From a bacterium (GTDB lineage Bacteria; Patescibacteriota; Minisyncoccia; Phycocordibacterales; UBA5272): a DNA stretch of 35,647 nucleotides. The DNA lies in NCBI GenBank assembly GCA_043736875.1, contig JAYTBU010000027.1, positions 1-35,647 on the forward strand. The letters run 5' to 3'. This document shows positions 1,035 through 29,270 of this stretch, in pieces. The translations under genes and the position numbers were made by a program. Each line of letters begins with the position of its first letter. The stretch's first letter is position 1. A model generated the notes under the pieces. The model did no database searches. It was not told where the DNA came from and saw nothing but the letters and a program-made list of their open reading frames with translations.

Positions 1035-1319
1035 ATGATAAGCATACAAGATTTACATTATTTGGAGAACTTAGCAAAGGTAAAAATACCAGAAACAGAA
1101 TTAGAAAATTATTCAAAAGAAATAAGTGACGTTTTAGAATACATAAAAGAGATACAAAATCTAGAAGTTGGTGAATATGCTCTGGACAAGCAAGTTCACA
1201 GCAATATTTTTAGAGATGATTTAGTTTTAAATCAAAATAATCACATAGACAAAGCTATACAAAATGCACCAGATAGTATCGGTAACCTTTACAAAGTCTC
1301 ACAAGTTATAAAACAATAA
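1035..1319 (+). CDS. gatC: Asp/Glu-tRNA amidotransferase subunit C
   Basis: 94-aa ORF directly upstream of gatA. Its size and the FRDD...NAP...KV pattern are typical of GatC. Confidence 0.85.
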   Translation: MISIQDLHYLENLAKVKIPETELENYSKEISDVLEYIKEIQNLEVGEYALDKQVHSNIFRDDLVLNQNNHIDKAIQNAPDSIGNLYKVSQVIKQ

Positions 1320-1343: not shown

Positions 1344-2789
1344 ATGCAAATAGAAAATAAGACAGAAAGTAAAATACTAAAAATATACAATCAGATTTTA
1401 AATAAAGAAAAAACTATAAAACAAATAGTAGATGAGCACATGGCTATTATAAATGAAAAAGAAAAAACTGTAGACGCTCTGCTTGGCATATATGATAACG
1501 ACTTTATCAGCAAGCAAATAGAAAAAGCAGAGCAGATGTTTGCAGAAAATAAACAGACACAGATGACAGGTGTGCCGATAATAGTAAAAGACAATCTGTG
1601 TGTCGAGGGTCAGATAGCAAGTGCGGCGTCAAAGATGCTTGAAAATTATACAGCCACTTATAATGCAGGGGTAGTACAAAAATTAATAGATGCCGGAGCT
1701 GTGATAATAGGTAGGGCTAATATGGACGAATTCGCTATGGGTGGCAGTACAGAAAATAGTGCTTATAAGAAAACCATGAATCCACTAGACACAACTCGTG
1801 TCCCTGGTGGTTCATCTGGAGGATCTGCTGCTGTGGTTGCATACGGAGGAGTGCCAGTATCTATAGGGTCAGATACAGGAGGTAGTGTGCGTCAGCCAGC
1901 AGCATTTTGTGGGGTCATGGGTTTAAAGCCTACTTACGGTGATGTGTCACGTTATGGACTGATAGCGATGGGATCATCACTCGATGTGGTTGGTCCATTT
2001 GCAACCAATGCTACAGACCTTGAGATAGTTTACAATATAATAAAAGGTAAAGACGATCACGATGCTACCAGCTTAGAAGAAAGTGAAAAAGAAAATATTA
2101 GAAAAAGTAATAAAAAGTCTGGTAAAATTATAGGCATACCAAAAACTTTTATAGATACTGATGGAGTGAGCGAGGATATAAGGAAAAACTTTTATGACAC
2201 TATAGAAAAATTAAAAGCAAAAGGTTATGAGGTAAAAGAGATAGAATTAAACAATATAGAAAAAGCTTTATCTGTGTATTATATACTTATGTTCGCAGAG
2301 GTCAGTTCTAACCTTGCTCGTTTTGACGGAGTGCGCTACGGTAAAAGTGTGGCAGGAGAAACTCCAAATGAAAGCATGATAAAGTCAAGAACAGAAGGAC
2401 TAGGAAAAGAGCCAATACGCAGGTCGCTACTAGGAACTTATGTACTTTCTAGTGGTTATTACGATGCTTATTATTATAAAGCAGTTAGTGCGAGAGAGGC
2501 GCTTAAAAAAGAATTTGCAAAAGTATTTGCAGGGGTTGATTATATAGCTACACCGACTTCTCCTATACATGCATGGAGATTTGGAGAAAAATCTGATCCT
2601 ATTAGTATGTATCTGGCTGATATATTTACAGTGCCGGCGAATATTGTTGGTGTGCCTGGCATATCTGTGCCGACAGGAAAAGTATCAGAAGCAGGATTTG
2701 AAAAACTAGATTACAGTGTGCAGTTTTTAGCAAATTGGTATAATGACTGTGGATTAGTTAGTGTCGCAAAAGACGTAGAGATGCTATAA
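1344..2789 (+). CDS. gatA: Asp/Glu-tRNA amidotransferase subunit A
   Basis: 481 aa with the amidase signature GGSSGGSAA and GSDTGGSVRQPA. Located next to gatC. Confidence 0.95.
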   Translation: MQIENKTESKILKIYNQILNKEKTIKQIVDEHMAIINEKEKTVDALLGIYDNDFISKQIEKAEQMFAENKQTQMTGVPIIVKDNLCVEGQIASAASKMLENYTATYNAGVVQKLIDAGAVIIGRANMDEFAMGGSTENSAYKKTMNPLDTTRVPGGSSGGSAAVVAYGGVPVSIGSDTGGSVRQPAAFCGVMGLKPTYGDVSRYGLIAMGSSLDVVGPFATNATDLEIVYNIIKGKDDHDATSLEESEKENIRKSNKKSGKIIGIPKTFIDTDGVSEDIRKNFYDTIEKLKAKGYEVKEIELNNIEKALSVYYILMFAEVSSNLARFDGVRYGKSVAGETPNESMIKSRTEGLGKEPIRRSLLGTYVLSSGYYDAYYYKAVSAREALKKEFAKVFAGVDYIATPTSPIHAWRFGEKSDPISMYLADIFTVPANIVGVPGISVPTGKVSEAGFEKLDYSVQFLANWYNDCGLVSVAKDVEML

Positions 2790-2796
2790 TGTAAGT

Positions 2797-4323
2797 GTGT
2801 ATTCATTTAACCTAGATTATATTTTTGATAAAGTTTATGATGTTGTCCTCAGTGTAAAATACTTTTGGTATTTTACTGTACTTGGGTATGATGAAAAGAG
2901 GTACTTGGAAAGTGTTAGCAATGAAGTGTGGGACGGGCTACGTGACAGAGGCTGGTTTGAAAAAGGGTATATTACCTCTGAAGAAAATCGTATAGATAAT
3001 TTTTTGAATATGATTGGTTTTAACACAAAATTAGATACTGACGGTGATGGTGTTCCAAACCTAAAAGACAATAAACCATTAGATACAAATAATTTTACAC
3101 AAGAAAAAACAAAAGAAGTTTTTGGAGCGGATATGAATATGGGTGACAAGATAAAAAGTTTTTTTGGTCTGGATATTTTAGATACAGATAAGGATGGTGT
3201 GCCAGACAGTTATGAGGTTAAGCACAGCATGAATATAAATAAGCCAGACAGTGATGGTGATGGCATACTAGATAGTGAAGAGGTTTTTAAAGGTTTAAGT
3301 CCAATGAATGCAGATCAAGATAGAGATGGTATATTAGACGGACGAGATGCCTACCCTTTGGATATCAATAGAAGTGTGGTAGAGAGTGATGTTGATAGTG
3401 ACGGTGATGGTATTGGAGATAGATTTGAAAACATACTAGGTAGTGACCTAAACAATCCAGATAGTGATGGCGATGGACTGAGTGATGGTGCTGATCAGTA
3501 TATAAATAATAAATTAAATACAGTGCACAGCTTGCAAAGCTTTACAAATGAAGGTGTATTTTCTGGTTTAACTTTTTCTGTACAAAATGACATATTGCGT
3601 TTTCTGTCTGACTTAATCTCACTCTTAACTTTATTTTTACTACCACTTTCTATGTATATTTTTTATAAGTGGTATGTACAAATAGATCATGACATAAAAC
3701 ATTATTATCACCTTTTCCATCATGCATATGGTTACAAGCATCATGATGGTGATGAGGGACACGGTAAAAATAATCATGGAGGAAAAAAGAAAAACTTTTT
3801 AGACAAAGTTTTAGACAAGATATTTGGTGTAGAAAAATACGCAAAGAAGCTAGAGGGTTCAGACAAGAATACTGCGCACAATAAAAACTTTTCAGAGATA
3901 AAAAATAGTATAGATAAAGACAAAGACTTTCATAAAAATACACATACAGAAAGTGCTGAAAACAATACTATACACCATGTTGTGGATCCTGGCATAATCA
4001 GTGTGTCTGTATTAGAAAAAGATAAGAGATGGGAAATAGTAGATAAGTATATGAATGAAAAAGATGAGGTATTCTGGAGGCTAGGTATAATAGAGGCTGA
4101 CAACATACTTGATGACGCTCTTAAAAATAAAGGGTATTCTGGCCAGAACTTGGGAGAGAGGCTGATCAATGCTAATTTTAGAACTATAGACTTGGCTTGG
4201 GATGCCCACAAGATAAGAAATAAAATAGCTCACGCAGGATCAAATTATAACCTGACAGACAGAGAAGCAAGGCGAGCTTATATTATGTTTGAAACTGTTT
4301 TACAGGATCTAAAAGTAATTTAA
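2797..4323 (+). CDS. Membrane protein with six thrombospondin-type-3 (calcium-binding) repeats, a His-rich tract and a C-terminal RNxxxH (HEPN-like) domain
   Basis: GTG start 8 nt after the gatA stop. Six DxDxDGxxDxxD/E repeats are present (DTDGDGVPNLKD, DTDKDGVPDSYE, DSDGDGILDSEE, DQDRDGILDGRD, DSDGDGIGDRFE, DSDGDGLSDGAD). There is one hydrophobic span (LISLLTLFLLPLSMYIFY) and a His-rich tract (HDIKHYYHLFHHAYGYKHHDGDEGHGKNNHGG). The C-terminus reads ...AWDAHKIRNKIAHAG... Confidence 0.6.
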   Translation: MYSFNLDYIFDKVYDVVLSVKYFWYFTVLGYDEKRYLESVSNEVWDGLRDRGWFEKGYITSEENRIDNFLNMIGFNTKLDTDGDGVPNLKDNKPLDTNNFTQEKTKEVFGADMNMGDKIKSFFGLDILDTDKDGVPDSYEVKHSMNINKPDSDGDGILDSEEVFKGLSPMNADQDRDGILDGRDAYPLDINRSVVESDVDSDGDGIGDRFENILGSDLNNPDSDGDGLSDGADQYINNKLNTVHSLQSFTNEGVFSGLTFSVQNDILRFLSDLISLLTLFLLPLSMYIFYKWYVQIDHDIKHYYHLFHHAYGYKHHDGDEGHGKNNHGGKKKNFLDKVLDKIFGVEKYAKKLEGSDKNTAHNKNFSEIKNSIDKDKDFHKNTHTESAENNTIHHVVDPGIISVSVLEKDKRWEIVDKYMNEKDEVFWRLGIIEADNILDDALKNKGYSGQNLGERLINANFRTIDLAWDAHKIRNKIAHAGSNYNLTDREARRAYIMFETVLQDLKVI

Positions 4324-4353: not shown

Positions 4354-4785
4354 ATGCAAGACAAAAATATAAAATCAGAAAAACCAAAATATAATATTAC
4401 TTATGCTAAGCCGAGTAAAATTAATTTTAAAGACTTATTAAAAGTTTCTAGTATCCCAGTTTTTATCGCATCATTGTGTTGTCTGTCTCCTGTTATCTTA
4501 CTGTCACTTGGCCTCGTTACTGTGAGTGTAGCGGGTGAGCTGGCTGATGTATTTTATGGTACTTACAAGTGGGTATTTCGCGGAGTTGGAATGATTGCAC
4601 TCGTAACAGCTTTTGTATTTTACATGAGAAGGCAAGGCATATGTACATTGGATGATGCTAAAAAAAGAAGAAATGAAATAATTAATAAATTACTTTTAAC
4701 TTTAATTATAGGAGTTTCTACTTACTTATTCTTTTTGTATGTTGTGGTACATTATTTGGGTGTCTTTCTAAACATTTGGAAATAA
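4354..4785 (+). CDS. Three-span membrane protein with a CCxxP motif in TM1 (MerT-like architecture)
   Basis: 143 aa. TM1 is [21 protein letters not shown], followed by TM2, a loop with a single Cys ([10 protein letters not shown]), then TM3. The layout parallels the mercuric transporter MerT (recalled from memory). Confidence 0.5.
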
Positions 4786-4810
4786 ATTATTGTATCATTG
4801 TAATATAAGT

Positions 4811-6070
4811 ATGTTAAAACTAAATCTAAATCTAAATCTTAAAAATATTTTAACAATAATTGTATTATCTTTTATCTCTTTTGTGTTGTATAATACATAC
4901 AAGAGATCACATTCACCTCAATACAAAAGAGAAATAAATATGCAACAAGAAATAAATACAAAATTAAATAATGGAGAGTATAAAAAAATCATTTTTGCTG
5001 GAGGGTGTTTTTGGTGCACAGAGGCAGAGTTTAATCATGCTCCTGGTGTAATATCAGCTATATCTGGTTATGCTGACAGTGAGAAAGACAGAGTATATTT
5101 TTCGCCAACTTATGAAGAAGTTAGTTCTGAAAAAGTAAAAGCTCGCGAGGCTGTAGAGATTGTATACGATAAGAATAAAATTTCTATAGGTGACTTATTG
5201 GAAAAGTATTTTAAACATTTTGACCCGTCTGACACTGGAGGATCTTTTGGTGATAGGGGTTACCAATACACTTCTGCTATATATTACACAACAGAAGATC
5301 AGAAAATAAAATCAGAAGCAATAAAAAACAAAATAGAGCTGAGTAAAAAGTTTATAGAAAATAATAGTAAAGTAGCGACAGAGATATTGCCTCTTAATAA
5401 TTTTTACCCAGCCGAGGAGTATCATCAGGACTATAAAGACAAGAACCCAGTTAGATATAATCTGTACCGAGAGGGTAGTGGTAGAAATAGTTTTATAAAA
5501 TTACATTGGCAAGACGGCAGCACTACCACAAAGTCTATTTTCTCTGTAGAAAAAGAAATAAGTAGTATAGATTATAATCAAGATAAAAATATGCAAGAAG
5601 AAAATAAAAAAAATATTAAAAGATGGGAAAATTTTACCATAAAAGATAAAGAAGAAAAACTTAAAACTCTGACATCGGTACAGTATGACGTGACTCAAAA
5701 AGAGGGAACAGAGCGAGCATTTCAAAATGAATATAACGCAAATAAAGAAGCTGGTATATATGTCGACATAGTTTCTGGAGAACCTTTATTTTTATCCATA
5801 GATAAATATGATAGTGGCACTGGCTGGCCCAGCTTTACGAGACCATTAAGTGATTCATCTGTTACTACACATTCAGATAATGGTATATTTGTAAGTAGGA
5901 CAGAAGTTAGGAGTAAAATAGCTGACTCGCATTTGGGCCATGTATTTGAAGATGGTCCAAAAGATATGGGTGGCATGAGGTACTGTATGAATAGTGCTAG
6001 TCTCAGATTTGTAAAGTTAAAAGATATGGAGGTGGAGGGTTACAGTGAGTATATTTCTCTTTTGAGATAA
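4811..6070 (+). CDS. msrAB: Fused peptide methionine sulfoxide reductase MsrA-MsrB with N-terminal membrane anchor
   Basis: MsrA motif [11 protein letters not shown]. MsrB motifs GWPSF and [11 protein letters not shown]. Hydrophobic anchor [15 protein letters not shown]. The ATG at 4811 is preferred over the TTG at 4790 used by the ORF track. Confidence 0.9.
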
Positions 6071-6213: not shown

Positions 6214-6284
6214 AGCGGAATAGAGTAGAGGTAACTCACGAGGCTCATAACCTCGGGACACTGGTTCGATTCCAGTTTCCGCAA
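6214..6284 (+). tRNA. tRNA-fMet: tRNA-Met (CAT), probably the initiator tRNA-fMet
   Basis: Cloverleaf folded by hand. Acceptor AGCGGAA/TTCCGCA has an A1xA72 mismatch with G2:C71 and C3:G70. D arm is GAGT-AGAGGTA-ACTC (A11:U24). Anticodon arm is CGAGG-CTCATAA-CCTCG. T arm is ACTGG-TTCGATT-CCAGT. Discriminator is A73. No CCA is encoded. Confidence 0.75.
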
Positions 6285-6314
6285 CAAGTAAAACTACGCG
6301 AGCAAAAATTAAAT

Positions 6315-6339
6315 GCCCCGCCAGCGTAGCTGGCGGGGC
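6315..6339 (+). other. GC-rich perfect hairpin between the two CAT tRNAs (processing signal or weak terminator)
   Basis: GCCCCGCCAGC-GTA-GCTGGCGGGGC forms an 11-bp perfect stem with a GTA triloop. The following T run is poor (ATTTATAGAATTT). Confidence 0.5.
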
Positions 6340-6352
6340 ATTTATAGAATTT

Positions 6353-6426
6353 GTCGGTGTAGCTCAGTTGGTTAGAGCATAGCATTCATAAAGCTAAGGT
6401 CGGTGGTTCGATCCCACCCATCGACA
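6353..6426 (+). tRNA. tRNA with CAT anticodon (elongator Met or lysidine-modified Ile2; not resolvable by eye)
   Basis: Acceptor GTCGGTG/CATCGAC (one G-U pair). D arm GCTC-AGTTGGTTA-GAGC (C11:G24, elongator type). Anticodon arm TAGCA-TTCATAA-AGCTA. T arm GGTGG-TTCGATC-CCACC. 74 nt, no CCA encoded. Confidence 0.8.
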
Positions 6427-6452
6427 CAGAGATATGGCACACTTGATTTATC

Positions 6453-6506: not shown

Positions 6507-7013
6507 ATGAATCAAGTGATCTTTCTGGCTGGGCTTCCTGCCGTAGGTAAATCAACCTTGGCACAACAAATGGCTAAAAAATATGATGGAAAGGTTTTAG
6601 ATATAGATGACATAAAGAGAAAGTTAAGCGACCCTAATCTTGTAACGTCTTCTATTGATACTCCTGAGATTAGGTGGAGGTGCTACGAAGAAGCTGCTAG
6701 ACAAATCTTTCAATTTTTTAAAAATGGTGAAGATGTCGTTATTGTGGATGAAGTTTTTCACCTAAATGAGCTCAGGGAAAAATTAGAAGCTTTACTTGCG
6801 TCCAATGAAGTAGAAGTTGTGTGGATTCAGGTTGTTTGTTCTTTTGAACAAGTTAAGAAAAGATTGGAAAGTAAGTCTCGTACAGGTCATATTTTGTCAA
6901 CAGATGAAGCTTTGAAAATGTACGTACTTTTTCAGGAAATTTTTGAACCATTCCCCCAAGACAAAAAGAATCATTCAGTTTTCAACAATGATACTAGTTC
7001 ATTAACTGTTTAG
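6507..7013 (+). CDS. Small P-loop NTPase/kinase (AAA_33 or zeta-toxin/polynucleotide-kinase-like fold)
   Basis: 168 aa. Walker A motif is GLPAVGKST and the Walker B-like motif is VVIVDEVF. A strong Shine-Dalgarno sequence (AGGAG) lies 8 nt upstream. The gene is visibly more GC-rich than its neighbours. Confidence 0.6.
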   Translation: MNQVIFLAGLPAVGKSTLAQQMAKKYDGKVLDIDDIKRKLSDPNLVTSSIDTPEIRWRCYEEAARQIFQFFKNGEDVVIVDEVFHLNELREKLEALLASNEVEVVWIQVVCSFEQVKKRLESKSRTGHILSTDEALKMYVLFQEIFEPFPQDKKNHSVFNNDTSSLTV

Positions 7014-7028
7014 TAATCATTTTTAATT

Positions 7029-7062
7029 TGGCTGATGTAATCAAATACTCAGCCATTTTTTT
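7029..7062 (+). terminator. Rho-independent terminator after the kinase gene
   Basis: Stem TGGCTGA/TCAGCCA with inner GTA/TAC pairs, followed by TTTTTTT. Confidence 0.6.
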
Positions 7063-7118
7063 AATATATTTAACGACTTTAAATATAATTTACAATACTA
7101 ATTTTTAATAAAAATCAT

Positions 7119-7868
7119 ATGAATAAAATTTTACATTTACCCACAAAGAGAATAACTAATTCAGAATCTATAGAAAAAGTTAAAATTAACGATTCGTTAA
7201 TGTTAGCAACTGCAATAGGATTAAAAAAAGAAATAAACGAAGACTCCGTCAGTCTTTTTATTGACGGCAATATTACAAGAATATGTATTTCAGATGGTCA
7301 CTGGGGAGAAGAAGCTTCTGATATTATCAATAAGTATTGGATCGATAAAAATTTAATATTCCCTAAAAACTTAATAGAAGCACAAAATGAAACTAATAAG
7401 ATAGAAGATATTCTTTATCAAAAATTTGGTGAAAAAGTTACAGATGAAAATAAAGATTTTACACCAGAATCGAGTTTTATCTGTATAGAAATAGTGGACG
7501 ACAAGGTATCAATAGTTAGCTACGGCGATAGCAGGCTTTTTATAATGGATAAAGAAAATATAAAATTTATTCAAGAGTGTAAGAGTACATGGCTTGGAGT
7601 TTTTTCAAGACTGGGCCTCAGAGGTAGACTATCTGTAAAAGAGGGGGTTGTATTTAATGTAGAAAAGTTAAATCCTGGAGATAGTGTATTTTTATTTACT
7701 GATGGAGTGGATCAGTGTATTTATGAAAAAGATACAATAAGTTTTGATGCTATTGCTAGCTTTTCAAAAAAGTTGAATGTAGAAGATTCTGTTGACACCA
7801 TATTAAAAGAAGTCTTTAATTTTGGTGCCGAAGATAATGCTAGCTTGGTAATTTATAAATATGAGTAG
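7119..7868 (+). CDS. PP2C-family Ser/Thr protein phosphatase-like protein
   Basis: 249 aa. It carries the PP2C motif series ISDGHWGEEAS (DGxGG-like), YGDSRLF, FLFTDGV and a C-terminal AEDNASLVIY (DN-I/V-T-like). Confidence 0.65.
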   Translation: MNKILHLPTKRITNSESIEKVKINDSLMLATAIGLKKEINEDSVSLFIDGNITRICISDGHWGEEASDIINKYWIDKNLIFPKNLIEAQNETNKIEDILYQKFGEKVTDENKDFTPESSFICIEIVDDKVSIVSYGDSRLFIMDKENIKFIQECKSTWLGVFSRLGLRGRLSVKEGVVFNVEKLNPGDSVFLFTDGVDQCIYEKDTISFDAIASFSKKLNVEDSVDTILKEVFNFGAEDNASLVIYKYE

Positions 7869-11529: not shown

Positions 11530-12573
11530 ATGTTTGGCTTATTTAAAAAAGTAGAGAAAAGATATATAGGACTTGATCTAGGAGAGTCGAGTATAAAGCT
11601 TGTCGATATATCCAATCTAGAAGACAGACTAATTCTTAATAATTATACAGAATTAGAAATAGGCACATATGCAGGCAGAGAAAATGGTGAGATAGTAAAG
11701 CTTGGAGAAAAAGAGATAACCCAGGCAATAAAAGATATATACACGAGCTCAGAATCATCTTGTAAAAATTTTGTAGTGTCGGTCCCTATGCAATCATGTG
11801 TTATAAAAAGTTTTGACTTACCTATAGAAACTAAAAGTATATTGGACACTATTGTACCATACGAATTTTCAAAAGGGACAATGTTAAAAGCATATGATTT
11901 TAACATTAATTATAACATAGTAGAAGAGACAGACTCTAAGTTGAGCTTACTTGTTGTTGCAATAAAGCAAAAGGATGTAGACAGGATAAATAGTATATTT
12001 GCAGACATAGACCATAATGTTCTGCGAGTAGAACCGAGTATATTTGGACTTTCTAGAAATATAGAAAGATTAAATACTGGAAGTGTCAATATGATTATTG
12101 ATTTTGGCGCCAGTGTAACAAGCGTTCTTTTTGTCAGTGCCAACAAAGTATATATGGCTCAGACTTTTTCAAAAGGTGTAAATCAAATAATCTTAAATAT
12201 TAAAAACAATCTAAGTGTGAGTTTTTTATCAGCAAAGAAATTCTTTTTTGAGTTGGATATTTTAAATGAAAGTAGTCTAGAAGCACAGATATGTAATAGT
12301 TCATTTGCTTCTATTTTAGAAGAAGTTATACACATACAAAATAATTTTTATAATAAATTTTCATTAAAATGTAGTAATATATATATAAGCGGTGGAGGGT
12401 CAAAAATAAATAATATTGAAAGTATGATAAAGCAGTTTTTCCCGCTCATGCAAGTCTCAAAAATAAATGGATTTGAGAGATTATTTTTACCAGAAACTTT
12501 AAAGGAGACAACTTTTAAACATGGTGGAACATTTAACAATGCGATAGGAGTTACATTATCAGAAATAGAATAA
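11530..12573 (+). CDS. pilM: Type IV pilus assembly protein PilM (actin-like ATPase fold)
   Basis: 347 aa. N-terminal IGLDLGESSIKLV motif. First gene of the pilMNO-pilBTC operon. Confidence 0.85.
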   Translation: MFGLFKKVEKRYIGLDLGESSIKLVDISNLEDRLILNNYTELEIGTYAGRENGEIVKLGEKEITQAIKDIYTSSESSCKNFVVSVPMQSCVIKSFDLPIETKSILDTIVPYEFSKGTMLKAYDFNINYNIVEETDSKLSLLVVAIKQKDVDRINSIFADIDHNVLRVEPSIFGLSRNIERLNTGSVNMIIDFGASVTSVLFVSANKVYMAQTFSKGVNQIILNIKNNLSVSFLSAKKFFFELDILNESSLEAQICNSSFASILEEVIHIQNNFYNKFSLKCSNIYISGGGSKINNIESMIKQFFPLMQVSKINGFERLFLPETLKETTFKHGGTFNNAIGVTLSEIE

Positions 12574-12577
12574 ATAT

Positions 12578-13369
12578 ATGCCACCTTTCAGAAAAAATAA
12601 TAATTTTATAACAAATAAAACAGAAGAGCTGTTACCGTCTGATCCTTTTAGACCTATTGCTATTCTGGTATTTACTTTTTCTATACTTATTTCTATCTCG
12701 GTGTATGGGGGGCTTTATTATTTTGAAGCTAAAAATAAAGCTTTAGAAGATGGGGTAAAGTCACTAGAGGTTGAAATAGCTAAAATGCCACTGAAAGAAA
12801 TGGTTCAGATGTACAACAAGATCACAAACATAAACACTATTCTTTCTACAAGAAATAATGTGCTGCTGGTTCTTAATTTGCTGGCTGACTCTGTAGAAGA
12901 TGGAGTTTATTTTGAAAAGATGGACATAGTTACAAAAGAAAAATATGCTGAAATGTCTATTTTTGGAGTTACAAATAGTTATGAAAATATAGTAAAACAA
13001 ATAGATAGTATGAAAAGAGAGTCAGAATCATATAAGAGTCTGATTAAAAAAGTTACACTAAAGTCAGTCTCATCTGACAAAGATAATAATATAAAATTTT
13101 TATTATCTGTAGAAATAGACATGGTAAATAAAAATCAGTTTATGATAGAATCTAAAAAATATGACCCTACATACCAGAGTCCTTCTAGTGTAGAGATTAA
13201 TTTTGGGGGTCTAAATATCAGTACCAGTACCACCTCTACTTTTATACAAAGCTCTACGTCTTCTATAGCAACCACCACCTCAAGCTCTACTGTAGAAATA
13301 AAACCTGCACCAGACACAAAAACCACCCCAACAGAAACAGTCAAGGTAATTAAAATTAAAACAACCTAG
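12578..13369 (+). CDS. pilN: PilN-like bitopic pilus assembly protein with Ser/Thr-rich C-terminal tail
   Basis: 263 aa with an N-terminal TM span (IAILVFTFSILISISVYGGLYYF) followed by a coiled segment. It follows pilM. The tail reads STSTTSTFIQSSTSSIATTTSSSTVEIKPAPDTKTTPTE. Confidence 0.65.
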   Translation: MPPFRKNNNFITNKTEELLPSDPFRPIAILVFTFSILISISVYGGLYYFEAKNKALEDGVKSLEVEIAKMPLKEMVQMYNKITNINTILSTRNNVLLVLNLLADSVEDGVYFEKMDIVTKEKYAEMSIFGVTNSYENIVKQIDSMKRESESYKSLIKKVTLKSVSSDKDNNIKFLLSVEIDMVNKNQFMIESKKYDPTYQSPSSVEINFGGLNISTSTTSTFIQSSTSSIATTTSSSTVEIKPAPDTKTTPTETVKVIKIKTT

Positions 13370-13372
13370 AAT

Positions 13373-13951
13373 ATGAAACAATATATATTAACCATATCAC
13401 TATTTACAATATCTACGATACTGGTATTTTGTATTGTTATGCCACTGTATAATGGTTCTGGATATAGTGTTATACCGATGTCAAATCTAATACAAAAATA
13501 TACTGAAAATAAAAAATTAAAAGAAGCTTTACTGATTTCTCAGGATTTATTTTCAAATAGTGAAGAAAATGTGCGAGGCTTTTATTCTATAGATGATGAA
13601 TATAAAAGAAAATTAGACTTGGCGGTCCCAGCGGTAAAAGATATACCAAGAACTCTTAATAATATAAATGTACTTGCTTATGAAAACTCAATAGAGCTTT
13701 CCGATTTCAAGTTTTCTAAAAATATAAATGATGTAAAAAAGAAAGACTATATTACTTACGACGTTTCTTTTTCTTTGATTGGTAGATACGATAATTTTCT
13801 TAATTTTATATCTAAAATAGAAAAGAGTTTAGAAATATACAACATAAAAAGTATCTCTATAGCTACAGCTGATAACAAAGAACAGTCATATGGAACTATG
13901 AAATACGTAATTTCTCTGGAATCTTTTGAGATTAAAAATAATATTAAATAA
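13373..13951 (+). CDS. pilO: PilO-like bitopic pilus assembly protein
   Basis: 192 aa with an N-terminal TM span. The call rests on its position after the pilN-like gene and its size, both typical of PilO. Confidence 0.55.
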   Translation: MKQYILTISLFTISTILVFCIVMPLYNGSGYSVIPMSNLIQKYTENKKLKEALLISQDLFSNSEENVRGFYSIDDEYKRKLDLAVPAVKDIPRTLNNINVLAYENSIELSDFKFSKNINDVKKKDYITYDVSFSLIGRYDNFLNFISKIEKSLEIYNIKSISIATADNKEQSYGTMKYVISLESFEIKNNIK

Positions 13952-13963
13952 AATAATAAACAT

Positions 13964-14263
13964 ATGAATAAAATACAACTAAAACAAGAAAACATAAAGT
14001 ATATATACGGACTATTTTTTATGGTACTGTTATCTTTTTTTGCATACGTTGCTTATGATATTTTATACAGAGAACATCAGACAGAAGAAGTACTTTTGTT
14101 ATCGTCTGATACATTTAGAATAGTTCAGGATTTTAAAAATAAAGGTGTAAGTTTTCTAAATATAGAAAACCTAATAAATGGGACCTTCTCTTATCTGGAA
14201 AATATAAATAAAGACGTATTGCCTTTTACTGAAAAGGGCAGATTTAACCCTTTTGAAAGATAA
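13964..14263 (+). CDS. Small bitopic membrane protein of the pilus operon (possible PilP-like role)
   Basis: 99 aa with TM span YGLFFMVLLSFFAYVAY. The C-terminal GRFNPF resembles the R-D/N-P-F motif recalled from PilP-type proteins. Confidence 0.45.
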   Translation: MNKIQLKQENIKYIYGLFFMVLLSFFAYVAYDILYREHQTEEVLLLSSDTFRIVQDFKNKGVSFLNIENLINGTFSYLENINKDVLPFTEKGRFNPFER

Positions 14264-14264
14264 T

Positions 14265-15989
14265 ATGATAATATTAACCGAACTTTTAAAAAGAAATATA
14301 TTATCTGAGCTGCAGGTAAGAGACATAAGTAACAAATTAGATGCGGGAGATGTTTTAACTGTTGATGATGCTTTTAAAGTTTTTAATGTGCAAGCTAGTG
14401 TAGTAAAGCAAGTCAGGTCTGAGATTTTCGCTTTACCAACTTTTGATACTGTAATAAAATTAGACACTAATAATATAAATTATCTAGATCAGAGCATGGC
14501 TAGAAAATATAAGATATTGCCACTTAATTTTTCTGATAATACACTAAGTGTTGGTCTGGTTGACCCAGAAAATCAAGACACTATATCTGTTATAGAAAAT
14601 TCAACCATTAAAAATGGTATCAAATACAAACTTTTTTTAATATCTCAAGATCAGTTTGAGGCAGGTCTGATTGAGTATTTTAATGCAAGTGTAGAAGAAG
14701 AGTCTGCAAAATCATTGGTTTTGGGAGATGTAAATAGTAGTGTCGGAGACTTGGATAAAAAAGAGGCAACAGACATAACCAAATTTGACCAAGATTTATC
14801 TAAAAATATAACAGACGATAGTGTAGATACAATAGTAAACACTCTTATAAATCAAGCTTTAAAGCAAGATGTAAGTGATATACATATAGAGCATCTGGGA
14901 GACAGTCTTCGGGTTAGGTACAGGATAGACGGAGTGTTAGAGAAGAAATTAGAGTTACCACCGAGCATGCACTCATCATTAATAGCAAAAGTTAAAATAC
15001 TTTCTGATATGAAGCTTGATGAAAAAAGAAAGCCACAAGATGGACGTTTTTCTGTCAGGATAGAAGGTCATAAGGTAGATTTTCGTGTGTCATCTATGCC
15101 AGGATACTATGGTGAGAAAGTGGTTATACGTATTTTAGATAGTTATAGAGGTATAAGAAAGCTTGAAAATATGGGTTTTAGTGAGCTGCATTTAAAGCAA
15201 ATTAGAAATGCTCTGCAGAGACCTTATGGTATGATACTCATAAGTGGTCCGACAGGATCTGGAAAAACCACCACTTTATACTCAATGATAAATGAAATAG
15301 ACAGAGATAAAAGAAATGTTGTATCATTAGAAGACCCAATAGAATACAATGTGTCAGGCATGAATCAGTCACAGATATTCCCAGAGATAGGTTATAACTT
15401 TTCTACTGGATTACGCTCTATATTACGTCAAGATCCTGACGTCATTATGGTTGGAGAAATACGTGACGCAGAGACGGCTCAGCTAGCTGTGCAAGCAGCA
15501 CTGACAGGACACTTAGTTTTTTCTACTATACACACCAATAATAGTGTTGGAGTTATAACTAGATTAATAGATATGGGTGTAGATCCATTTTTGATAGCAC
15601 CTACGCTTTGTCTTTCTATAGCACAACGTCTGGTTCCTCAAATATATCCAAAATGTGAAGCTCCTCTTGAAATGGGTGAAGGTTTAAAAGCTATGATAAA
15701 AAAAGAATTTGAAGAATTGCCGGAAAGCTTTAGAGAGAAATTAGATTTGGATAGGCCTGTGTATCAAGCTCTGCCAAATGAAATAGCACCATCAGGAACA
15801 AAAGGTCGCGTACCAGTTTTGGAGATACTAGAAATTGATGATGATATACAAAATGCTATAGTTACTAAAAAATCAGAAGATGATTTGTGGAAAATAGCAA
15901 AGACAAAAGGTATGATAACCATGAAGCAAGATGCTATCATAAAATCTATGAATAAAATAGTTCCATTTGTGGAAATCGCCGGCTTGTAA
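14265..15989 (+). CDS. pilB: Type IV pilus extension ATPase PilB (GspE family)
   Basis: 574 aa counted from the ATG at 14265. Walker A motif is GPTGSGKTTT, plus VGEIRD and FSTIHTN boxes and an N-terminal T2SSE_N-like region. Confidence 0.9.
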   Translation: MIILTELLKRNILSELQVRDISNKLDAGDVLTVDDAFKVFNVQASVVKQVRSEIFALPTFDTVIKLDTNNINYLDQSMARKYKILPLNFSDNTLSVGLVDPENQDTISVIENSTIKNGIKYKLFLISQDQFEAGLIEYFNASVEEESAKSLVLGDVNSSVGDLDKKEATDITKFDQDLSKNITDDSVDTIVNTLINQALKQDVSDIHIEHLGDSLRVRYRIDGVLEKKLELPPSMHSSLIAKVKILSDMKLDEKRKPQDGRFSVRIEGHKVDFRVSSMPGYYGEKVVIRILDSYRGIRKLENMGFSELHLKQIRNALQRPYGMILISGPTGSGKTTTLYSMINEIDRDKRNVVSLEDPIEYNVSGMNQSQIFPEIGYNFSTGLRSILRQDPDVIMVGEIRDAETAQLAVQAALTGHLVFSTIHTNNSVGVITRLIDMGVDPFLIAPTLCLSIAQRLVPQIYPKCEAPLEMGEGLKAMIKKEFEELPESFREKLDLDRPVYQALPNEIAPSGTKGRVPVLEILEIDDDIQNAIVTKKSEDDLWKIAKTKGMITMKQDAIIKSMNKIVPFVEIAGL

Positions 15990-16004
15990 TTTGTAAAAAT
16001 GTAG

Positions 16005-16010
16005 TATAAT
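16005..16010 (+). promoter_or_regulatory. Internal -10 box (TATAAT) with leaderless spacing to pilT
   Basis: TATAAT at 16005-16010, then exactly 6 nt to the ATG at 16017. Confidence 0.45.
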
Positions 16011-16016
16011 GTATCT

Positions 16017-17087
16017 ATGCAAGAAAAATATTTATCTAACGACTTACTTAATAATCTAATACTAACTCTGGTAAAAGAAGACGGTTCTGACATACACTTG
16101 GTTGCGGATATGAGTCCAGCAGTGCGTATACATGGTGAACTTATACCCATAACAAAAGTTTCCAAGTTAGAATCTTCTGAAATAGTTGAAATACTGAGGC
16201 TCATAATAACTCCAGAGCAGTATGAAAAGTATTTGAGTGATCAGCAAGTGGACTTTTCTTACACTCATTCAGGTGAGTACAGACTAAGAGGGCATGCCTT
16301 TGTTCAAAAAGGGAAAACTAGTTTAGTGCTTAGGCTTGTACCAAAAATAAAAGAGATTAATGACCTTAACTTACCAAAAGAGTTATTGGATGTGTGCAAG
16401 CTAAAACAAGGCTTCTTTTTGGTGGTGGGCCCAGTAGGACAAGGAAAGTCAACTACGCTTGCTAGTATGATTAATTACATTAACACAAATGATAAAAAAA
16501 TAATCTCTACCATAGAGGACCCTATAGAATATATACACGAATCAAAAAATAGCTATATAACACAAAGAGAAATAGGTACAGATACAAAAAGTTTCCCAGC
16601 AGCTCTGGAGGCAACTTTTAGACAAGATGTAGACGTCATACTTTTAGGAGAAATGCGTGACGCAGATACTATACGCACTGCCGTAACTGCTGCTGAGACT
16701 GGGCATTTAGTGTTTTCTACTTTACATACTAACTCTGCTTCACAGACGATAGACAGAGTTATAGATTCTTTCCCCTCTAATCAGCAAGATCAGATACGCT
16801 CACAACTAGCTTCTTCTTTGGTTGGAGTATTTTCACAGAGACTGCTACCAAAGATTGGTGGCGGACTCATGCCTATATATGAGCTATTAATGGTTAATAG
16901 TGCAGTACAGAACCTGATCAGAGAGAAAAGATCTTATGAGATAGATAATATAATAGAGACTGGCGCACATTCTGGCATGATTAGTTTTGACAGATGTCTA
17001 GCTGCTGCTGTTGTTAGAGGTGATGTACCGATAGACGAAGCTATATTGCACGCTAAAAACAAAGACATGTTTCAAGACTTAATATAA
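16017..17087 (+). CDS. pilT: Twitching-motility (retraction) ATPase PilT
   Basis: 356 aa. Walker A motif is GPVGQGKSTT, plus LGEMRD and GHLVFSTLHTNSA. The size is typical of PilT. Confidence 0.9.
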   Translation: MQEKYLSNDLLNNLILTLVKEDGSDIHLVADMSPAVRIHGELIPITKVSKLESSEIVEILRLIITPEQYEKYLSDQQVDFSYTHSGEYRLRGHAFVQKGKTSLVLRLVPKIKEINDLNLPKELLDVCKLKQGFFLVVGPVGQGKSTTLASMINYINTNDKKIISTIEDPIEYIHESKNSYITQREIGTDTKSFPAALEATFRQDVDVILLGEMRDADTIRTAVTAAETGHLVFSTLHTNSASQTIDRVIDSFPSNQQDQIRSQLASSLVGVFSQRLLPKIGGGLMPIYELLMVNSAVQNLIREKRSYEIDNIIETGAHSGMISFDRCLAAAVVRGDVPIDEAILHAKNKDMFQDLI

Positions 17088-17112
17088 AAAATTAAACATA
17101 AATACTATCAAT

Positions 17113-18321
17113 ATGAAATATAAATACAAAATATTTGGTCAGGATACAAAAATAAAAGAGGGTTATGTCGAGGATACCAGTAGAGAAAATGTGATCTTAA
17201 AGTTGCAGGCCGAGGGTAATATAATCATAACTGTAGAAGAGTCTATGGTTGTAGATGAGCTTTCTTTTTTTAAAAGATATCAAAAGAGAATAACAAAAAA
17301 AGATATAGTGTTATCGACAAAGCAATTGTCAACTTTGGTGGGTGGTGGAGTGCAGATACTAAGGGCTTTTAGGTTGCTTTCTAGTGAATCATCTTCTGCT
17401 GGTTTAGGAGAAAGATTCAAGATAATAGCAGATGATATACAGGCTGGTATGCAAGTATACAAGGCAATGTCTAGACATAGTGATGTTTTCGATTCTTTTT
17501 ATATATCTATGGTGCATAGCGGTGAAGAGACTGGAAAGTTAAAAGAAACTTTTGAATACTTGGCTGATTATATAGAAAGGAATTATGAGCTTGTGCAAAA
17601 AACAAAAAAAGCTTTGACATATCCTATGTTTGTTATAGCTACATTTATCGTTGTTATGATGATAATGGCTTTTGTTGTTTTGCCAAAATTAGTTGCCCTG
17701 ATATCAGAGCAAGGCCAAGAGATACCAGCTTTTACCAGGGGTATACTATGGGTATCTAACTTTTTGAAAGATTTTTGGTATATAGTTTTTCCAGCTATTG
17801 GGGCATTTATATTTTACCTATTTCAATATTCTAAAACTCCAGGAGGAGTGGCTTATTTTGACACTTTAAAGCTAAAAGTACCGATACTTAGTGGTTTGTA
17901 TCAAAAGCTATACTTGTCGCGCTTTGCTGACAATATAGATACTATGATAGGCTCTGGAGTGCCGATAGTTCAGTCACTGCAAATAACAGCTGAAGTAGTT
18001 GATAATTATGTTTTTAAAAAGATATTTGAAAGAGTGGCTGAGAAAGTTAAACAAGGTAAAATCTTGTCTGTTGCGCTAACAGAAGAGCCGATGATACCAA
18101 ATATTATGGTTCAGATGACCAGAATAGGAGAGGAGACTGGCGAGCTGGGTTACATGCTTAAAAATGTAGCAAAGTTCTACAAAAGAGAGTTAGAACAGAC
18201 AATAGAGTCAACGATATCGCTCATAGAGCCGCTTATGATAGTAGCTCTCGGCGGTGGTGTCGGACTACTCATGGCCTCTGTGCTTATGCCTATGTATAAC
18301 ATAGCTAGCTCTATACAATAA
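17113..18321 (+). CDS. pilC: Type IV pilus platform protein PilC (GspF family)
   Basis: 402 aa with a duplicated GspF-type domain, three hydrophobic spans, and a position after pilB/pilT. Confidence 0.9.
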   Translation: MKYKYKIFGQDTKIKEGYVEDTSRENVILKLQAEGNIIITVEESMVVDELSFFKRYQKRITKKDIVLSTKQLSTLVGGGVQILRAFRLLSSESSSAGLGERFKIIADDIQAGMQVYKAMSRHSDVFDSFYISMVHSGEETGKLKETFEYLADYIERNYELVQKTKKALTYPMFVIATFIVVMMIMAFVVLPKLVALISEQGQEIPAFTRGILWVSNFLKDFWYIVFPAIGAFIFYLFQYSKTPGGVAYFDTLKLKVPILSGLYQKLYLSRFADNIDTMIGSGVPIVQSLQITAEVVDNYVFKKIFERVAEKVKQGKILSVALTEEPMIPNIMVQMTRIGEETGELGYMLKNVAKFYKRELEQTIESTISLIEPLMIVALGGGVGLLMASVLMPMYNIASSIQ

Positions 18322-18946: not shown

Positions 18947-20029
18947 TTAATCTAAAACATATTTCTCATTTTCAAATATAACTTCTTCTAACTTTGTATT
19001 TTTATTTATAGTTGTAACTTTATCTACAACAGGGAATAGGTCCACGTGATACTTTGTTTTTTTACTTATGAGTCCCTCCTTTTTATACACGCTATGTTTT
19101 TCACCCATAGACAAATGCATGCCATATATACGCTCAAATGCTGTTATATCACCCAGGAACCTTTCTTTTGTTATTGCTTTGTTTAGACCAAAACCTATTT
19201 CACGTATTAGTGACCTCTCATAATCTTTTACTTGATTAAAGATATTTACAAACTCGAGAGGAGCATTGTCGTCATATCCAACCACTACACCTTTTTCTAT
19301 TGTAATATCAAATGGTTCATACATTTGCATATTAAAATCAGTATCAGCTAATGCGTAGATCAGTACTTTACCACTCATATTTTCCAATAGTTTACTTTCA
19401 GTAAAAACTTCACCAATAGGAAAAGTTCCGCCAATATTTTCCATTTGACTGTAATCGCCTATGTTTAATTTTGCTTCTTCTAACTCTCCATTTATTTCCA
19501 AAAAGTTTTCGCCACTTTTGATAATTAACTTTTCACTATTTGCTAATTTATTTTTAATATTATGTGCGTGATTATAATAATAGTCTTTGTCATATTCTAA
19601 GCTATTCACATATACATCCCACACATTCTCATCATTTCTATCTAGGTGCATATGCTCTATCACTTTTAATTTTTTAGTAAATAGGTGCAAACGTATTCTA
19701 AAGTCATCTAATCTAAAATTGGTAGTCTGTATCATAACAACTAGGTCCCTTTCTTTTAACTTTTCTATTTCTCTCAAAATCTCTTCTTTATTACTTTTAT
19801 CAAAATCTAAAAACTCTACCTTTTTTTCAAAGATTTCAAAATCTCCCCCACAGATTTCAGTCAGAGATTTTTTGTAACTCTCAGTCAATATATTAGTCAG
19901 TCCATTTTGAGTATCGTAAATAACTAAAACATTTTCGGTTTCTTTGTTGTATTTTATACTTAGATTTAAAATATTTTTTATATTTTTAGTACAAGTTTTT
20001 ATTAAGTTTTGATTTTCTATTGAGTTCAT
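18947..20029 (-). CDS. M29 (AmpS/aminopeptidase T)-like protein
   Basis: 360 aa. Motifs GGTFPIGEVFTE, EIGFGLN, FERIYGMHLSMGEKH and KYHVDL resemble the conserved blocks of family M29 aminopeptidases. Metal-ligand conservation was not verified. Confidence 0.5.
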   Translation of the reverse strand: MNSIENQNLIKTCTKNIKNILNLSIKYNKETENVLVIYDTQNGLTNILTESYKKSLTEICGGDFEIFEKKVEFLDFDKSNKEEILREIEKLKERDLVVMIQTTNFRLDDFRIRLHLFTKKLKVIEHMHLDRNDENVWDVYVNSLEYDKDYYYNHAHNIKNKLANSEKLIIKSGENFLEINGELEEAKLNIGDYSQMENIGGTFPIGEVFTESKLLENMSGKVLIYALADTDFNMQMYEPFDITIEKGVVVGYDDNAPLEFVNIFNQVKDYERSLIREIGFGLNKAITKERFLGDITAFERIYGMHLSMGEKHSVYKKEGLISKKTKYHVDLFPVVDKVTTINKNTKLEEVIFENEKYVLD

Positions 20030-26101: not shown

Positions 26102-26252
26102 AATTTACCAGACTTTTACTCTGGCTTATTTCGAACGTATACAAATACTAACATTTATACAATATAAAAGCAAGGTTTTTTGCTATATTTTTATACACAT
26201 ATTTCTTATTGCTAATTGTGTATAAGGCACCTTTTATTTTTTATTTTTAGTG

Positions 26253-26258
26253 TATAAT
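26253..26258 (+). promoter_or_regulatory. -10 box (TATAAT) with leaderless spacing to the long coiled-coil gene
   Basis: TATAAT at 26253-26258, then exactly 6 nt to the ATG at 26265. Confidence 0.5.
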
Positions 26259-26264
26259 AGAATT

Positions 26265-29200: not shown

Positions 29201-29270
29201 GAAAAGATTTGGTAGTTATGTGATGCAAGGGTCGCCAATCAATAATCTAAATTATAATATAAAAATATAA
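26265..29270 (+). CDS. Giant coiled-coil protein (about 1000 aa) with one membrane span and a C-terminal globular domain
   Basis: 1001 aa counted from the ATG at 26265. About 780 residues are Lys/Glu-rich with heptad-like character. A single hydrophobic span (WSSYLAIALASSLVAVGIG) is encoded around 28600-28660. The C-terminal domain contains GGRFNPCGLRY...NGFAIFENINQGWTACLRQIEKYQ...VWAPKNENDTNGYL. Confidence 0.6.
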   Translation: MNPSQSQPVSEVKPSQRLSFHEQMKRLKQGINDNSLNPERNLLQIQDLNRGFDAMDRFENNTKTPLSKEFVDVKNSSIRDGVINLENIATLLKKRETLLGQPASLARVKKFGGEIKSKTVELQNKIEDFKSAELKKDFTIEKLTESRNNFTRELSMAENYLQSYQIKILSLSKKISEMHIEIDSVSEDSIEHKKAKEELENKVKELEKSDITLNEQIKNYEKEIMELRDAKDEAENLIKEKEALLKTATENHSKEVSDHTKVLSGALSHNAALKVENISLDQGNKKLVSEVDKTKSEKQQMEEDNRKELRERVLEKKKDIESDSDNYLLEIQKILDEIKNKNNLYTKADFEKDRNLLNDKVKKSSKSIESYRKDLLKSDSLDSRNFWSKYINKNASKIGDEDYVPFYVDKKVHDMMLDFVARAQQRIKEVVKKDKDLKKISKLPLDEDDSARDYFNNDFLKPAEEISEYNRRQKALREIQSKPVAKENIAEEDIVVPVPESDLEKLSKDPDWIEAVRTGVVPDTIFDEIIRKTVAGETLSFKEIQMGTLQSDRINKKLQEIKDDEEAKKNIDSAALWEEQQKVDLKESLDKKIKEENVLFILTNKAATTESYLKIIKTFKSVGTIGDDEILKSLEIQIQNSFGKYNISEKSKKDFSTALLKKYNDDKLEAEIGKQKLIDLGIAAAQEVKRIFDLKEKERLEKEKKDREIKAWREDMDKVFGPRFIVSQNQDQVRVWAKNDLPEETFVAEPTDINLSDLDKVEDLPEQIKTPERQGFLKKWSSYLAIALASSLVAVGIGDDSNDKEVKQVAPVTQTAPVQEVKESVFAAPISDFDKIESGDEKEYRMGYTLIQGGRFNPCGLRYANQVGAKNVNGFAIFENINQGWTACLRQIEKYQDGTTANKNPDGSKVVTLEQFVNVWAPKNENDTNGYLNKLSKILEVDKNKKIAEIDYRKLAMGVIRMEGYAYTKPEWEKIQVEGKRFGSYVMQGSPINNLNYNIKI

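Follow-up and report, generated by a model that had tools for sequence, protein, structure and literature searches.

The gene considered here lies in a 35,647-nucleotide stretch of Patescibacteria DNA (contig JAYTBU010000027.1 of assembly GCA_043736875.1, positions 1 to 35,647), the whole of which we call the window and which belongs to a 0.67-Mb assembly that is ~91% complete. An open reading frame (ORF) at 2797-4323 on the forward strand, directly behind gatA, encodes a protein of 508 amino acids for which we use the working name X. Its parts join calcium-binding repeats, by way of one membrane helix and a His-rich linker, to a helical C-terminal domain that very probably belongs to the HEPN superfamily. 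The sequencing runs that match the stretch are of DNA only, and the sole run holding all of it is a sediment metagenome. The gene and its features, in window coordinates and residues of X, are as follows.

2797..4323 (+): gene X, 508 amino acids, GTG start; member of the gat-operon HEPN family of the type that carries thrombospondin type 3 (TSP3) repeats
2812..2880 (+), residues 6-28: conserved N-terminal helix, weakly hydrophobic; a helix in the AlphaFold model with a predicted local distance difference test score (pLDDT) of ~70
3034..3495 (+), residues 80-233: six TSP3 calcium-binding repeats, located by motif scan
3604..3672 (+), residues ~270-292: single membrane helix, located by hydropathy; part of a long AlphaFold helix, 265-310
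3688..3777 (+), residues 298-327: His-rich linker adjoining the membrane, with 9 His, containing HY(Y/E)HxF
4024..4308 (+), residues 410-504: C-terminal helical domain assigned to the HEPN superfamily from AlphaFold, hhalign and PDB fold match; predicted cytoplasmic
4216..4233 (+), residues 474-479: RNKIAH, an Rx4H motif (R474, N475 and H479)

The six repeats of the form DxDxDGxxDxxD/E start at residues 80, 129, 151, 173, 200 and 222, and the Pfam model TSP3_bac (PF18884) scores above its gathering cut-off on X (32.2 bits against 25, E = 9.7e-8). An NCBIfam search returned similarity at the level of the repeats only, to the repeat regions of CglD, MtsD and MtsC. These Myxococcus proteins (PF18884) have the DxDxDGxxDxxD calcium-binding repeats in common with X, but the repeats alone match, at 40 bits against an equivalog cut-off of 400, and the rest of the protein is unrelated. 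Residues ~270-292 form the sole 19-residue stretch of X with a Kyte-Doolittle hydropathy above 1.0. No signal peptide was found in X, the best N-terminal hydropathy window reaching only 0.99, and helix 6-28 may be a poor signal anchor or a first membrane helix. The motif HY(Y/E)HxF of the linker is common to the TSP3-type subclade described below. This order of parts (six TSP3 repeats, one membrane helix, a His-rich tract and a HEPN-like C-terminus) is the one proposed in an original prediction made from the DNA letters alone, which was also correct that no signal peptide is obvious. It counted 11 His in the tract; the tract is real, but holds 9.

Assignment of the C-terminal domain draws on its motif, on profile comparison and on predicted fold. 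According to the definition applied here, a HEPN motif consists of Rx4-6H with a polar residue (N, D or H) directly after the Arg (PMC3710099). The pattern occurs once in X, as RNKIAH with Asn following the Arg, which is the fit that had been predicted. All 14 sequences of a full-length alignment agree at R474, N475 and H479, and equally at W412, W427, I431, E433, A434, D435, L438, G446, G449, G453, A467, W468, A470, H471, A478, L486 and V501. Across 31 domain sequences the Arg and His are invariant and the Asn is at least 90% conserved, and the extended motif [AV][WF]x[AV]HxxRNxxAH is found in 182 of 193 collected sequences, with conservative exceptions.

At the level of profiles, no Pfam HEPN model passes its gathering score on X, the best being HEPN_Swt1, which covers the RNKIAH region with 16.1 bits against 27.5 (E = 0.014). 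When the 31 members were scanned singly, HEPN families were the commonest weak matches, with sub-threshold HEPN_Swt1 in 16 (best E = 3.8e-4), RiboL-PSP-HEPN in 10, and the HEPN families pEK499_p136, Cthe_2314, Ymh and DUF4145 among the others. We also compared a 192-sequence alignment of the X family by hhalign with 18 above-threshold DUF4145 domains taken from Patescibacteria genomes. The comparison returned a probability of 91.7% (E = 7.9e-7), with an alignment that spans 86 of ~105 columns and matches R, N and H of the motif, against 0.3% (E = 0.2) in controls where either alignment was reversed. DUF4145 is an accepted HEPN family (PMC3710099) of clan CL0291, and profile similarity to it and other HEPN families is what the original prediction had proposed to check.

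The AlphaFold2 model of the domain, made with the 31-sequence alignment, is an all-helical bundle with a pLDDT of 90.9 and a predicted template modelling score (pTM) of 0.82, in which four core helices are accompanied by one N-terminal helix and a short inserted helix. The top PDB match of this model in Foldseek is the HEPN protein AF_0298 (2hsb; probability 0.98, TM 0.58), and the HEPN entries 8xdj and 2q00 stand further down the list with generic four-helix bundles mixed in. The structural check proposed earlier yielded a confident model with a HEPN protein ranked first, although at E = 0.2 that match is not significant. A Foldseek search of the BFVD viral models with the domain was uninformative.

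Conceivably, the domain lies outside HEPN altogether and is a helical bundle specific to the lineage, in which R-x4-H arose by coincidence. The absence of an above-threshold Pfam match on X would agree with this, as would the Foldseek E-values against the PDB, all of them 0.2 or worse for a kind of structure in which helical bundles match promiscuously, and the sequence and hidden Markov model searches of PDB chains, which gave no HEPN protein. The top matches in those chain searches, MukF and spike proteins, were rejected as chance. A coincidental motif is difficult to reconcile with the hhalign probability and its reversed controls, with weak Pfam matches whose commonest representatives are all HEPN families, and with an invariant motif that has the typical polar residue after the Arg. 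We consider a non-HEPN bundle improbable, and the domain very probably represents a divergent, so far unnamed family of the HEPN superfamily. The original prediction was to be abandoned if the domain had no structural or profile similarity to HEPN folds, or if the Arg and His were not conserved among homologues; conservation and similarity were both found, and the proposed HEPN-like C-terminus therefore stands.

As the scores for DUF4145 and HEPN_Swt1 are sub-threshold, X is not a member of either as such and belongs to a separate family, whose domain no existing Pfam, NCBIfam or PADLOC model captures. Its nearest sequence and profile neighbours are DUF4145 (PF13643), HEPN_Swt1 (PF18731) and RiboL-PSP-HEPN (PF18735) of clan CL0291, with which it is predicted to share a four-helix core whose third helix bears the conserved N-xxx-H with an Arg ahead of it and precedes a last helix. 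DUF4145 differs in spacing, with R-xx-G-N-xxx-H where X has R-N-xxx-H, and in setting, as DUF4145 genes are patchily distributed and associated with restriction-modification and defence, whereas X is syntenic with gatCAB. At E <= 1e-5, nothing in the genome of the window matches DUF4145.

With residues 397-508 of X as the query, an exhaustive search recovered 2,031 clusters at 50% identity with E <= 1e-3 (961 with E <= 1e-10), and in almost all of these clusters the domain is at the C-terminus. Most members have only 140-230 amino acids, in which a short stub leads into one membrane helix that a linker connects to the domain. Longer members carry variable modules ahead of the membrane helix, which are either TSP3 repeats or bacterial SH3 domains, the latter flanked by two clear membrane helices. 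The TSP3 module and the His-rich linker are confined to one subclade with 2-6 repeats, in which a relative from the same taxonomic family as the window genome (L012) has two repeats only; His makes up 13% of the linker in 26 TSP3-type members versus 3.6% in 155 others. The domain is present in 122 of 201 sampled Patescibacteria genomes (~60%), with about four-fifths of the carriers having it once and the rest twice. The X family is thus a near-core, mostly single-copy gene of the Patescibacteria.

Many of the closest TSP3-type relatives (L041-L120) come from third-party annotation metagenome assemblies labelled "uncultured Candidatus Saccharibacteria", while equally close ones are labelled Paceibacterota or Parcubacteria. 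These conflicting organism labels look unreliable, and class names are not relied on here. One 1.5-kb contig with a TSP3-type relative is labelled Gammaproteobacteria and is probably mis-binned.

The genomic setting of X is equally regular. Upstream of it in the window are two genes for subunits of the amidotransferase GatCAB.

1035..1319 (+): gatC, Pfam GatC E = 2.4e-9; first gene of the conserved gatC-gatA-X unit
1344..2789 (+): gatA, TIGR00132 506 bits against a cut-off of 481; Pfam Amidase E = 1.4e-123

The gatA stop and the GTG of X are 7 nt apart, and no terminator was found between the two genes. Synteny was followed in three samples, namely five loci chosen by identity, with distant SH3-type and short forms among them, the 29 best non-self loci, and 80 named GTDB loci. 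In all five of the first sample gatC-gatA lies directly upstream, and some X genes overlap gatA, with overlapping stop and start codons in loci L006 and L008. In the second, gatA is found just upstream on the same strand in 27 of 29 loci, one of the two exceptions being cut by a contig end; in the third, it is likewise directly upstream on the same strand in 76 of the 77 loci with enough upstream sequence. Overlap between the two genes is frequent. The neighbours of X in the loci examined are gatC, gatA, gatB and ligA, and X holds a conserved co-operonic position with gatA and gatB.

The position of gatB requires comment, as the original prediction held that X replaces the gatB usually found after gatA. 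It is true that no gatB follows gatA-X here, and none is within 4 kb in any of 80 named relatives from the clade of the window. In 20 of the 29 best non-self loci, however, which come from other lineages, gatB starts just downstream of X in the order gatA-X-gatB, so that X appears to have stayed behind after gatB moved. In the window genome gatB is on another contig and is full length, with GatB_N and YqeY domains. The idea that X is a displaced or derived piece of GatB was rejected, given this full-length GatB elsewhere and the fact that no family member matched GatB_Yqey. In genomes with no detectable X, gatA is followed by gatB, by a major facilitator superfamily transporter and then gatB, by a cyclophilin, or, in one genome of the same class, by a degenerate X.

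The cyclophilin recurs in a second arrangement. In several lineages (L159-L163; for example L159:932-4316) the order is gatA, a membrane-anchored peptidyl-prolyl isomerase of the cyclophilin type, X (148 amino acids) and gatB, which places two membrane-anchored proteins between subunits of a soluble enzyme. A similar membrane-anchored cyclophilin stands directly after gatA in the lineages L121, L123 and L124, which have no X.

Two kinds of relative lack the RNxxxH motif. In genome G123 (locus L128), of the same class as the window genome, a 162-residue X homologue with a membrane helix starts 83 nt after gatA, so that a motif-less member occupies the slot downstream of gatA; RNxxxH is replaced there by ...WEGYKILYIEQKKD.... 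The other is a paralogue, X2, of 205-235 amino acids, in which the HEPN-like domain is N-terminal and RNxxxH has been lost. Copies of X2 were located at L159:4643-5284, L160:9954-10622, L161:4927-5634, L162:3713-4336 and L163:4143-4775. Four of the five end in hydrophobic stretches resembling membrane helices. The usual distance from X to the X2 downstream of it is 1.5-8 kb, and in three of the five loci the ORF that comes after X2 has a start resembling that of dnaE. A search for X2 in the window found none.

This distribution bears directly on the function first suggested for X, that of a surface sensor of calcium or another metal wired to a HEPN toxin and serving as a signalling or abortive-infection effector. 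Such a role is not without precedent, as most prokaryotic HEPN families are toxins or defence nucleases and a layout of outer domain, membrane helix and HEPN domain fits stimulus-dependent RNA degradation (PMC3710099). A gene that is near-core and mostly single-copy, and that keeps to one housekeeping locus in ~60% of a phylum, is, however, the opposite of a defence or abortive-infection gene, and DUF4145 genes, which are of the true defence type, are patchy in the same phylum (17 of 301 Patescibacteria genomes). Furthermore, neither an antitoxin nor a nucleotidyltransferase partner gene was seen in any locus examined, a PADLOC search with X and with its C-terminal domain returned no families at E <= 1, and the outer domain is absent from most family members. 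We therefore set the defence effector aside as highly improbable.

The orientation of X in the membrane can be predicted from the family as a whole. A membrane helix is found upstream of the domain in 181 of 190 members, and the 15 residues flanking it hold on average 3.4 Lys and Arg on the domain (C) side versus 0.9 on the N side, with the domain side richer in 158 members and poorer in 4. By the positive-inside rule, these statistics predict a cytoplasmic HEPN domain, as would be expected of a domain directed at RNA. This would put the TSP3 segment of X outside the cell. Everything ahead of the membrane helix makes up a strongly acidic segment, with a net charge of -31 in X and of -20 to -43 in relatives. 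Helix 6-28 of X aligns with the clear first membrane helix of SH3-type relatives and is more hydrophobic in L012 than in X, and a two-pass topology of X is therefore possible. The full-length AlphaFold model of X (pLDDT 63.8) is poor apart from the HEPN domain and the membrane helix, and leaves the N-terminal topology and the TSP3 fold without confident structure.

With this predicted topology, the minimal form of the family (an N-terminal membrane helix and a cytoplasmic four-helix HEPN-like domain) matches that of Csx28, an accessory protein of type VI-B CRISPR systems with a solved structure that forms octameric pores (bioRxiv 10.1101/2021.11.02.466367). It could be speculated that X likewise uses its membrane helix and a divergent HEPN-like bundle to assemble a face-to-back ring that controls permeability, with no role as a nuclease. 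Csx28 is encoded with Cas13b, though, whereas X has a housekeeping context, and no CRISPR-associated family is reported for the genes adjoining X in the loci examined. The motif of Csx28 is divergent and degenerate, with its Arg sequestered, while RNxxxH in the X family is canonical and invariant. Csx28 is also not among the 50 PDB fold matches listed, and X has no PADLOC matches. A pore of this kind seems to us distinctly improbable.

We favour a different interpretation. As X is near-core, mostly single-copy and embedded in the gat operon, a housekeeping role is most likely, and the operon embedding ties X to GatCAB and tRNA plausibly, if not provably. HEPN domains that only bind a substrate usually lose the Rx4-6H motif (PMC3710099), and the canonical R-N-xxx-H of this family is invariant, so the site is likely to be in use. 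With a probability of roughly 0.5, X is a housekeeping, membrane-tethered, cytoplasmic HEPN ribonuclease (RNase) or RNA-binding protein linked to GatCAB and tRNA. Under this interpretation, X would be a single-pass, possibly two-pass, inner-membrane protein with a four-helix HEPN domain formed by its C-terminal 100 residues on the cytoplasmic face. Two tethered HEPN domains would pair at the inner membrane surface, where their invariant R-N-xxx-H motifs could form a composite site acting as a metal-independent endoribonuclease or as an RNA-binding site. The substrate may be tRNA or another RNA tied to GatCAB-dependent synthesis of Gln- and Asn-tRNA, as the operon linkage suggests. In the TSP3-type subclade, the short outer stub would be replaced by an acidic module of 2-6 TSP3 repeats, complemented by a His-rich cytoplasmic linker. 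Binding of Ca2+ or of another metal, or surface attachment, could be the task of the module or the linker, and these additions might modulate the pairing of the cytoplasmic HEPN domains.

Several observations weigh against a housekeeping HEPN protein strictly dependent on GatCAB and on its motif, in addition to the sub-threshold profile and fold scores already described. GatB in the window genome has its own tRNA-binding domain, the YqeY tail, and 19 of 20 tested Patescibacteria without X keep gatA, so GatCAB does not require X, and membership of the operon may reflect co-expression only. The G123 homologue and X2 lack RNxxxH, so some functions of the family do not need the motif. Regarding the outer module, a proper signal peptide is missing from every TSP3-type member, and several relatives are without any N-terminal hydrophobic helix; to place an acidic N-terminal segment of 220-370 residues outside the cell is therefore to assume its export.

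The same observations bear in part on another reading, in which X serves GatCAB as an accessory or tether without catalysing a reaction, and its domain binds tRNA, a nucleotide or a Gat subunit so as to hold or regulate the amidotransferase at the membrane, with the Arg, Asn and His serving in binding. This would sit well with the placement of X, throughout the phylum, between gatA and gatB or right behind gatA, where stop and start codons overlap, and with the retention of relatives devoid of RNxxxH, whether after gatA as in G123 or a few kb downstream as in X2. HEPN domains that only bind substrate are, moreover, known from fusions with nucleotidyltransferases (PMC3710099). Yet such binding-only domains usually lose the very motif that is near-invariant in the X family, the full-length GatB of the window genome already has a tRNA-binding domain of its own, and lineages without X keep gatA. 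We regard a purely accessory role as unlikely, though it is the alternative to which we would give the most weight.

The favoured HEPN RNase or RNA-binding protein also has a bolder form, which we consider quite doubtful. In it, X would be a fourth, membrane-anchored component of the GatCAB (transamidosome) operon, a catalytically active HEPN ribonuclease at the inner membrane whose task is to cleave or monitor tRNA, such as unamidated Glu-tRNAGln or Asp-tRNAAsn. The SH3 and TSP3 forms would then couple the state of the surface, such as Ca2+ or host contact, to translation, making X a minimal bacterial counterpart of Ire1-type signalling, placed within a housekeeping pathway.

The architectural idea behind X has a history. 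In 2013, Anantharaman et al. described a class of HEPN domains that are linked to membrane helices and outer sensor domains, and predicted them to be cytoplasmic parts of inner-membrane proteins that process RNA at the membrane in "stimulus-dependent RNA degradation" (PMC3710099). Three groups were distinguished there, namely a membrane helix with a WP signature joined to DUF4145, an Abi2/Swt1-type domain with an alpha-helical N-terminal domain, and HEPN-2TM-Zn-ribbon, and DUF4145-like fusions to "TM and SH3" are listed as well (PMC3710099). X resembles this class in having a predicted cytoplasmic HEPN domain with Rx4-6H joined via a membrane helix to an outer or N-terminal domain, and the "TM and SH3" fusions resemble the SH3-type relatives of X. 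None of the three groups, however, corresponds to the X family, and none has TSP3 repeats, a fixed place in gatCAB or a near-core distribution in a phylum. The original prediction did not recognize the architecture of X as a described one; this was too broad a claim for the membrane-HEPN class, which was described in 2013, but holds for the present family and its gat context, which were not described there. Literature searches combining HEPN with Patescibacteria, HEPN with gatA, and GatCAB with the Candidate Phyla Radiation found nothing on the X family. The architectural idea is thus known, and the novelty lies in the X family as such, in its TSP3 form, in its being near-core in Patescibacteria and in its constant position within the gatCAB operon.

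A comparison can also be drawn with membrane-linked HEPN RNases of eukaryotes, the KEN domains of Ire1 and RNase L, and C6orf70. There, a sensor on the far side, one membrane helix and a HEPN RNase dependent on oligomerization serve core roles other than defence. X is bacterial, lacks a kinase domain and is not specifically related to these proteins in sequence, so the likeness is an analogy of design only. To our knowledge, the HEPN domains known from prokaryotes are nearly all toxins or defence nucleases. If the interpretation favoured here is correct, a HEPN domain that is membrane-tethered, near-core across a phylum and encoded within the operon for an essential enzyme of tRNA modification would count among the rare housekeeping HEPN domains of bacteria, and a common "hypothetical protein" of the Patescibacteria would gain a testable function as a membrane-associated RNase or a partner of GatCAB. 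The variation in outer domains (none, SH3 or TSP3) would further serve as a natural experiment to learn whether these episymbiotic, genome-reduced bacteria relay signals from the surface to a domain directed at RNA.

Other parts of the window yielded minor observations. Directly beyond X, at 4354-6070, a small membrane protein that has a CC motif and resembles MerT (below threshold in Pfam, with E = 1.1e-4 for MerT) precedes a membrane-anchored MsrA-MsrB fusion by 4 nt. The pair may act in thiol relay and methionine-sulfoxide repair, and is not conserved beside X in other genomes. Further along, at 6507-7868, an AAA_33/KTI12-like P-loop kinase (168 amino acids), whose weak PADLOC matches are through the P-loop only, precedes a SpoIIE/PP2C-like phosphatase (249 amino acids). 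The ORFs at 26250-29270 (1006 amino acids) and 18947-20029 on the minus strand (360 amino acids) match no Pfam family at E <= 1e-5. A type IV pilus cluster at 11530-18321, with PilM, a PilB-like T2SSE ATPase with MshEN, a PilT-like ATPase and PilC/T2SSF, is typical of Patescibacteria. Finally, two tRNA-Met (CAT) genes at 6214-6285 and 6353-6427 lie 67 nt apart, and between them, at 6310-6344 on the minus strand, is a strong GC-rich hairpin of 16 bp.

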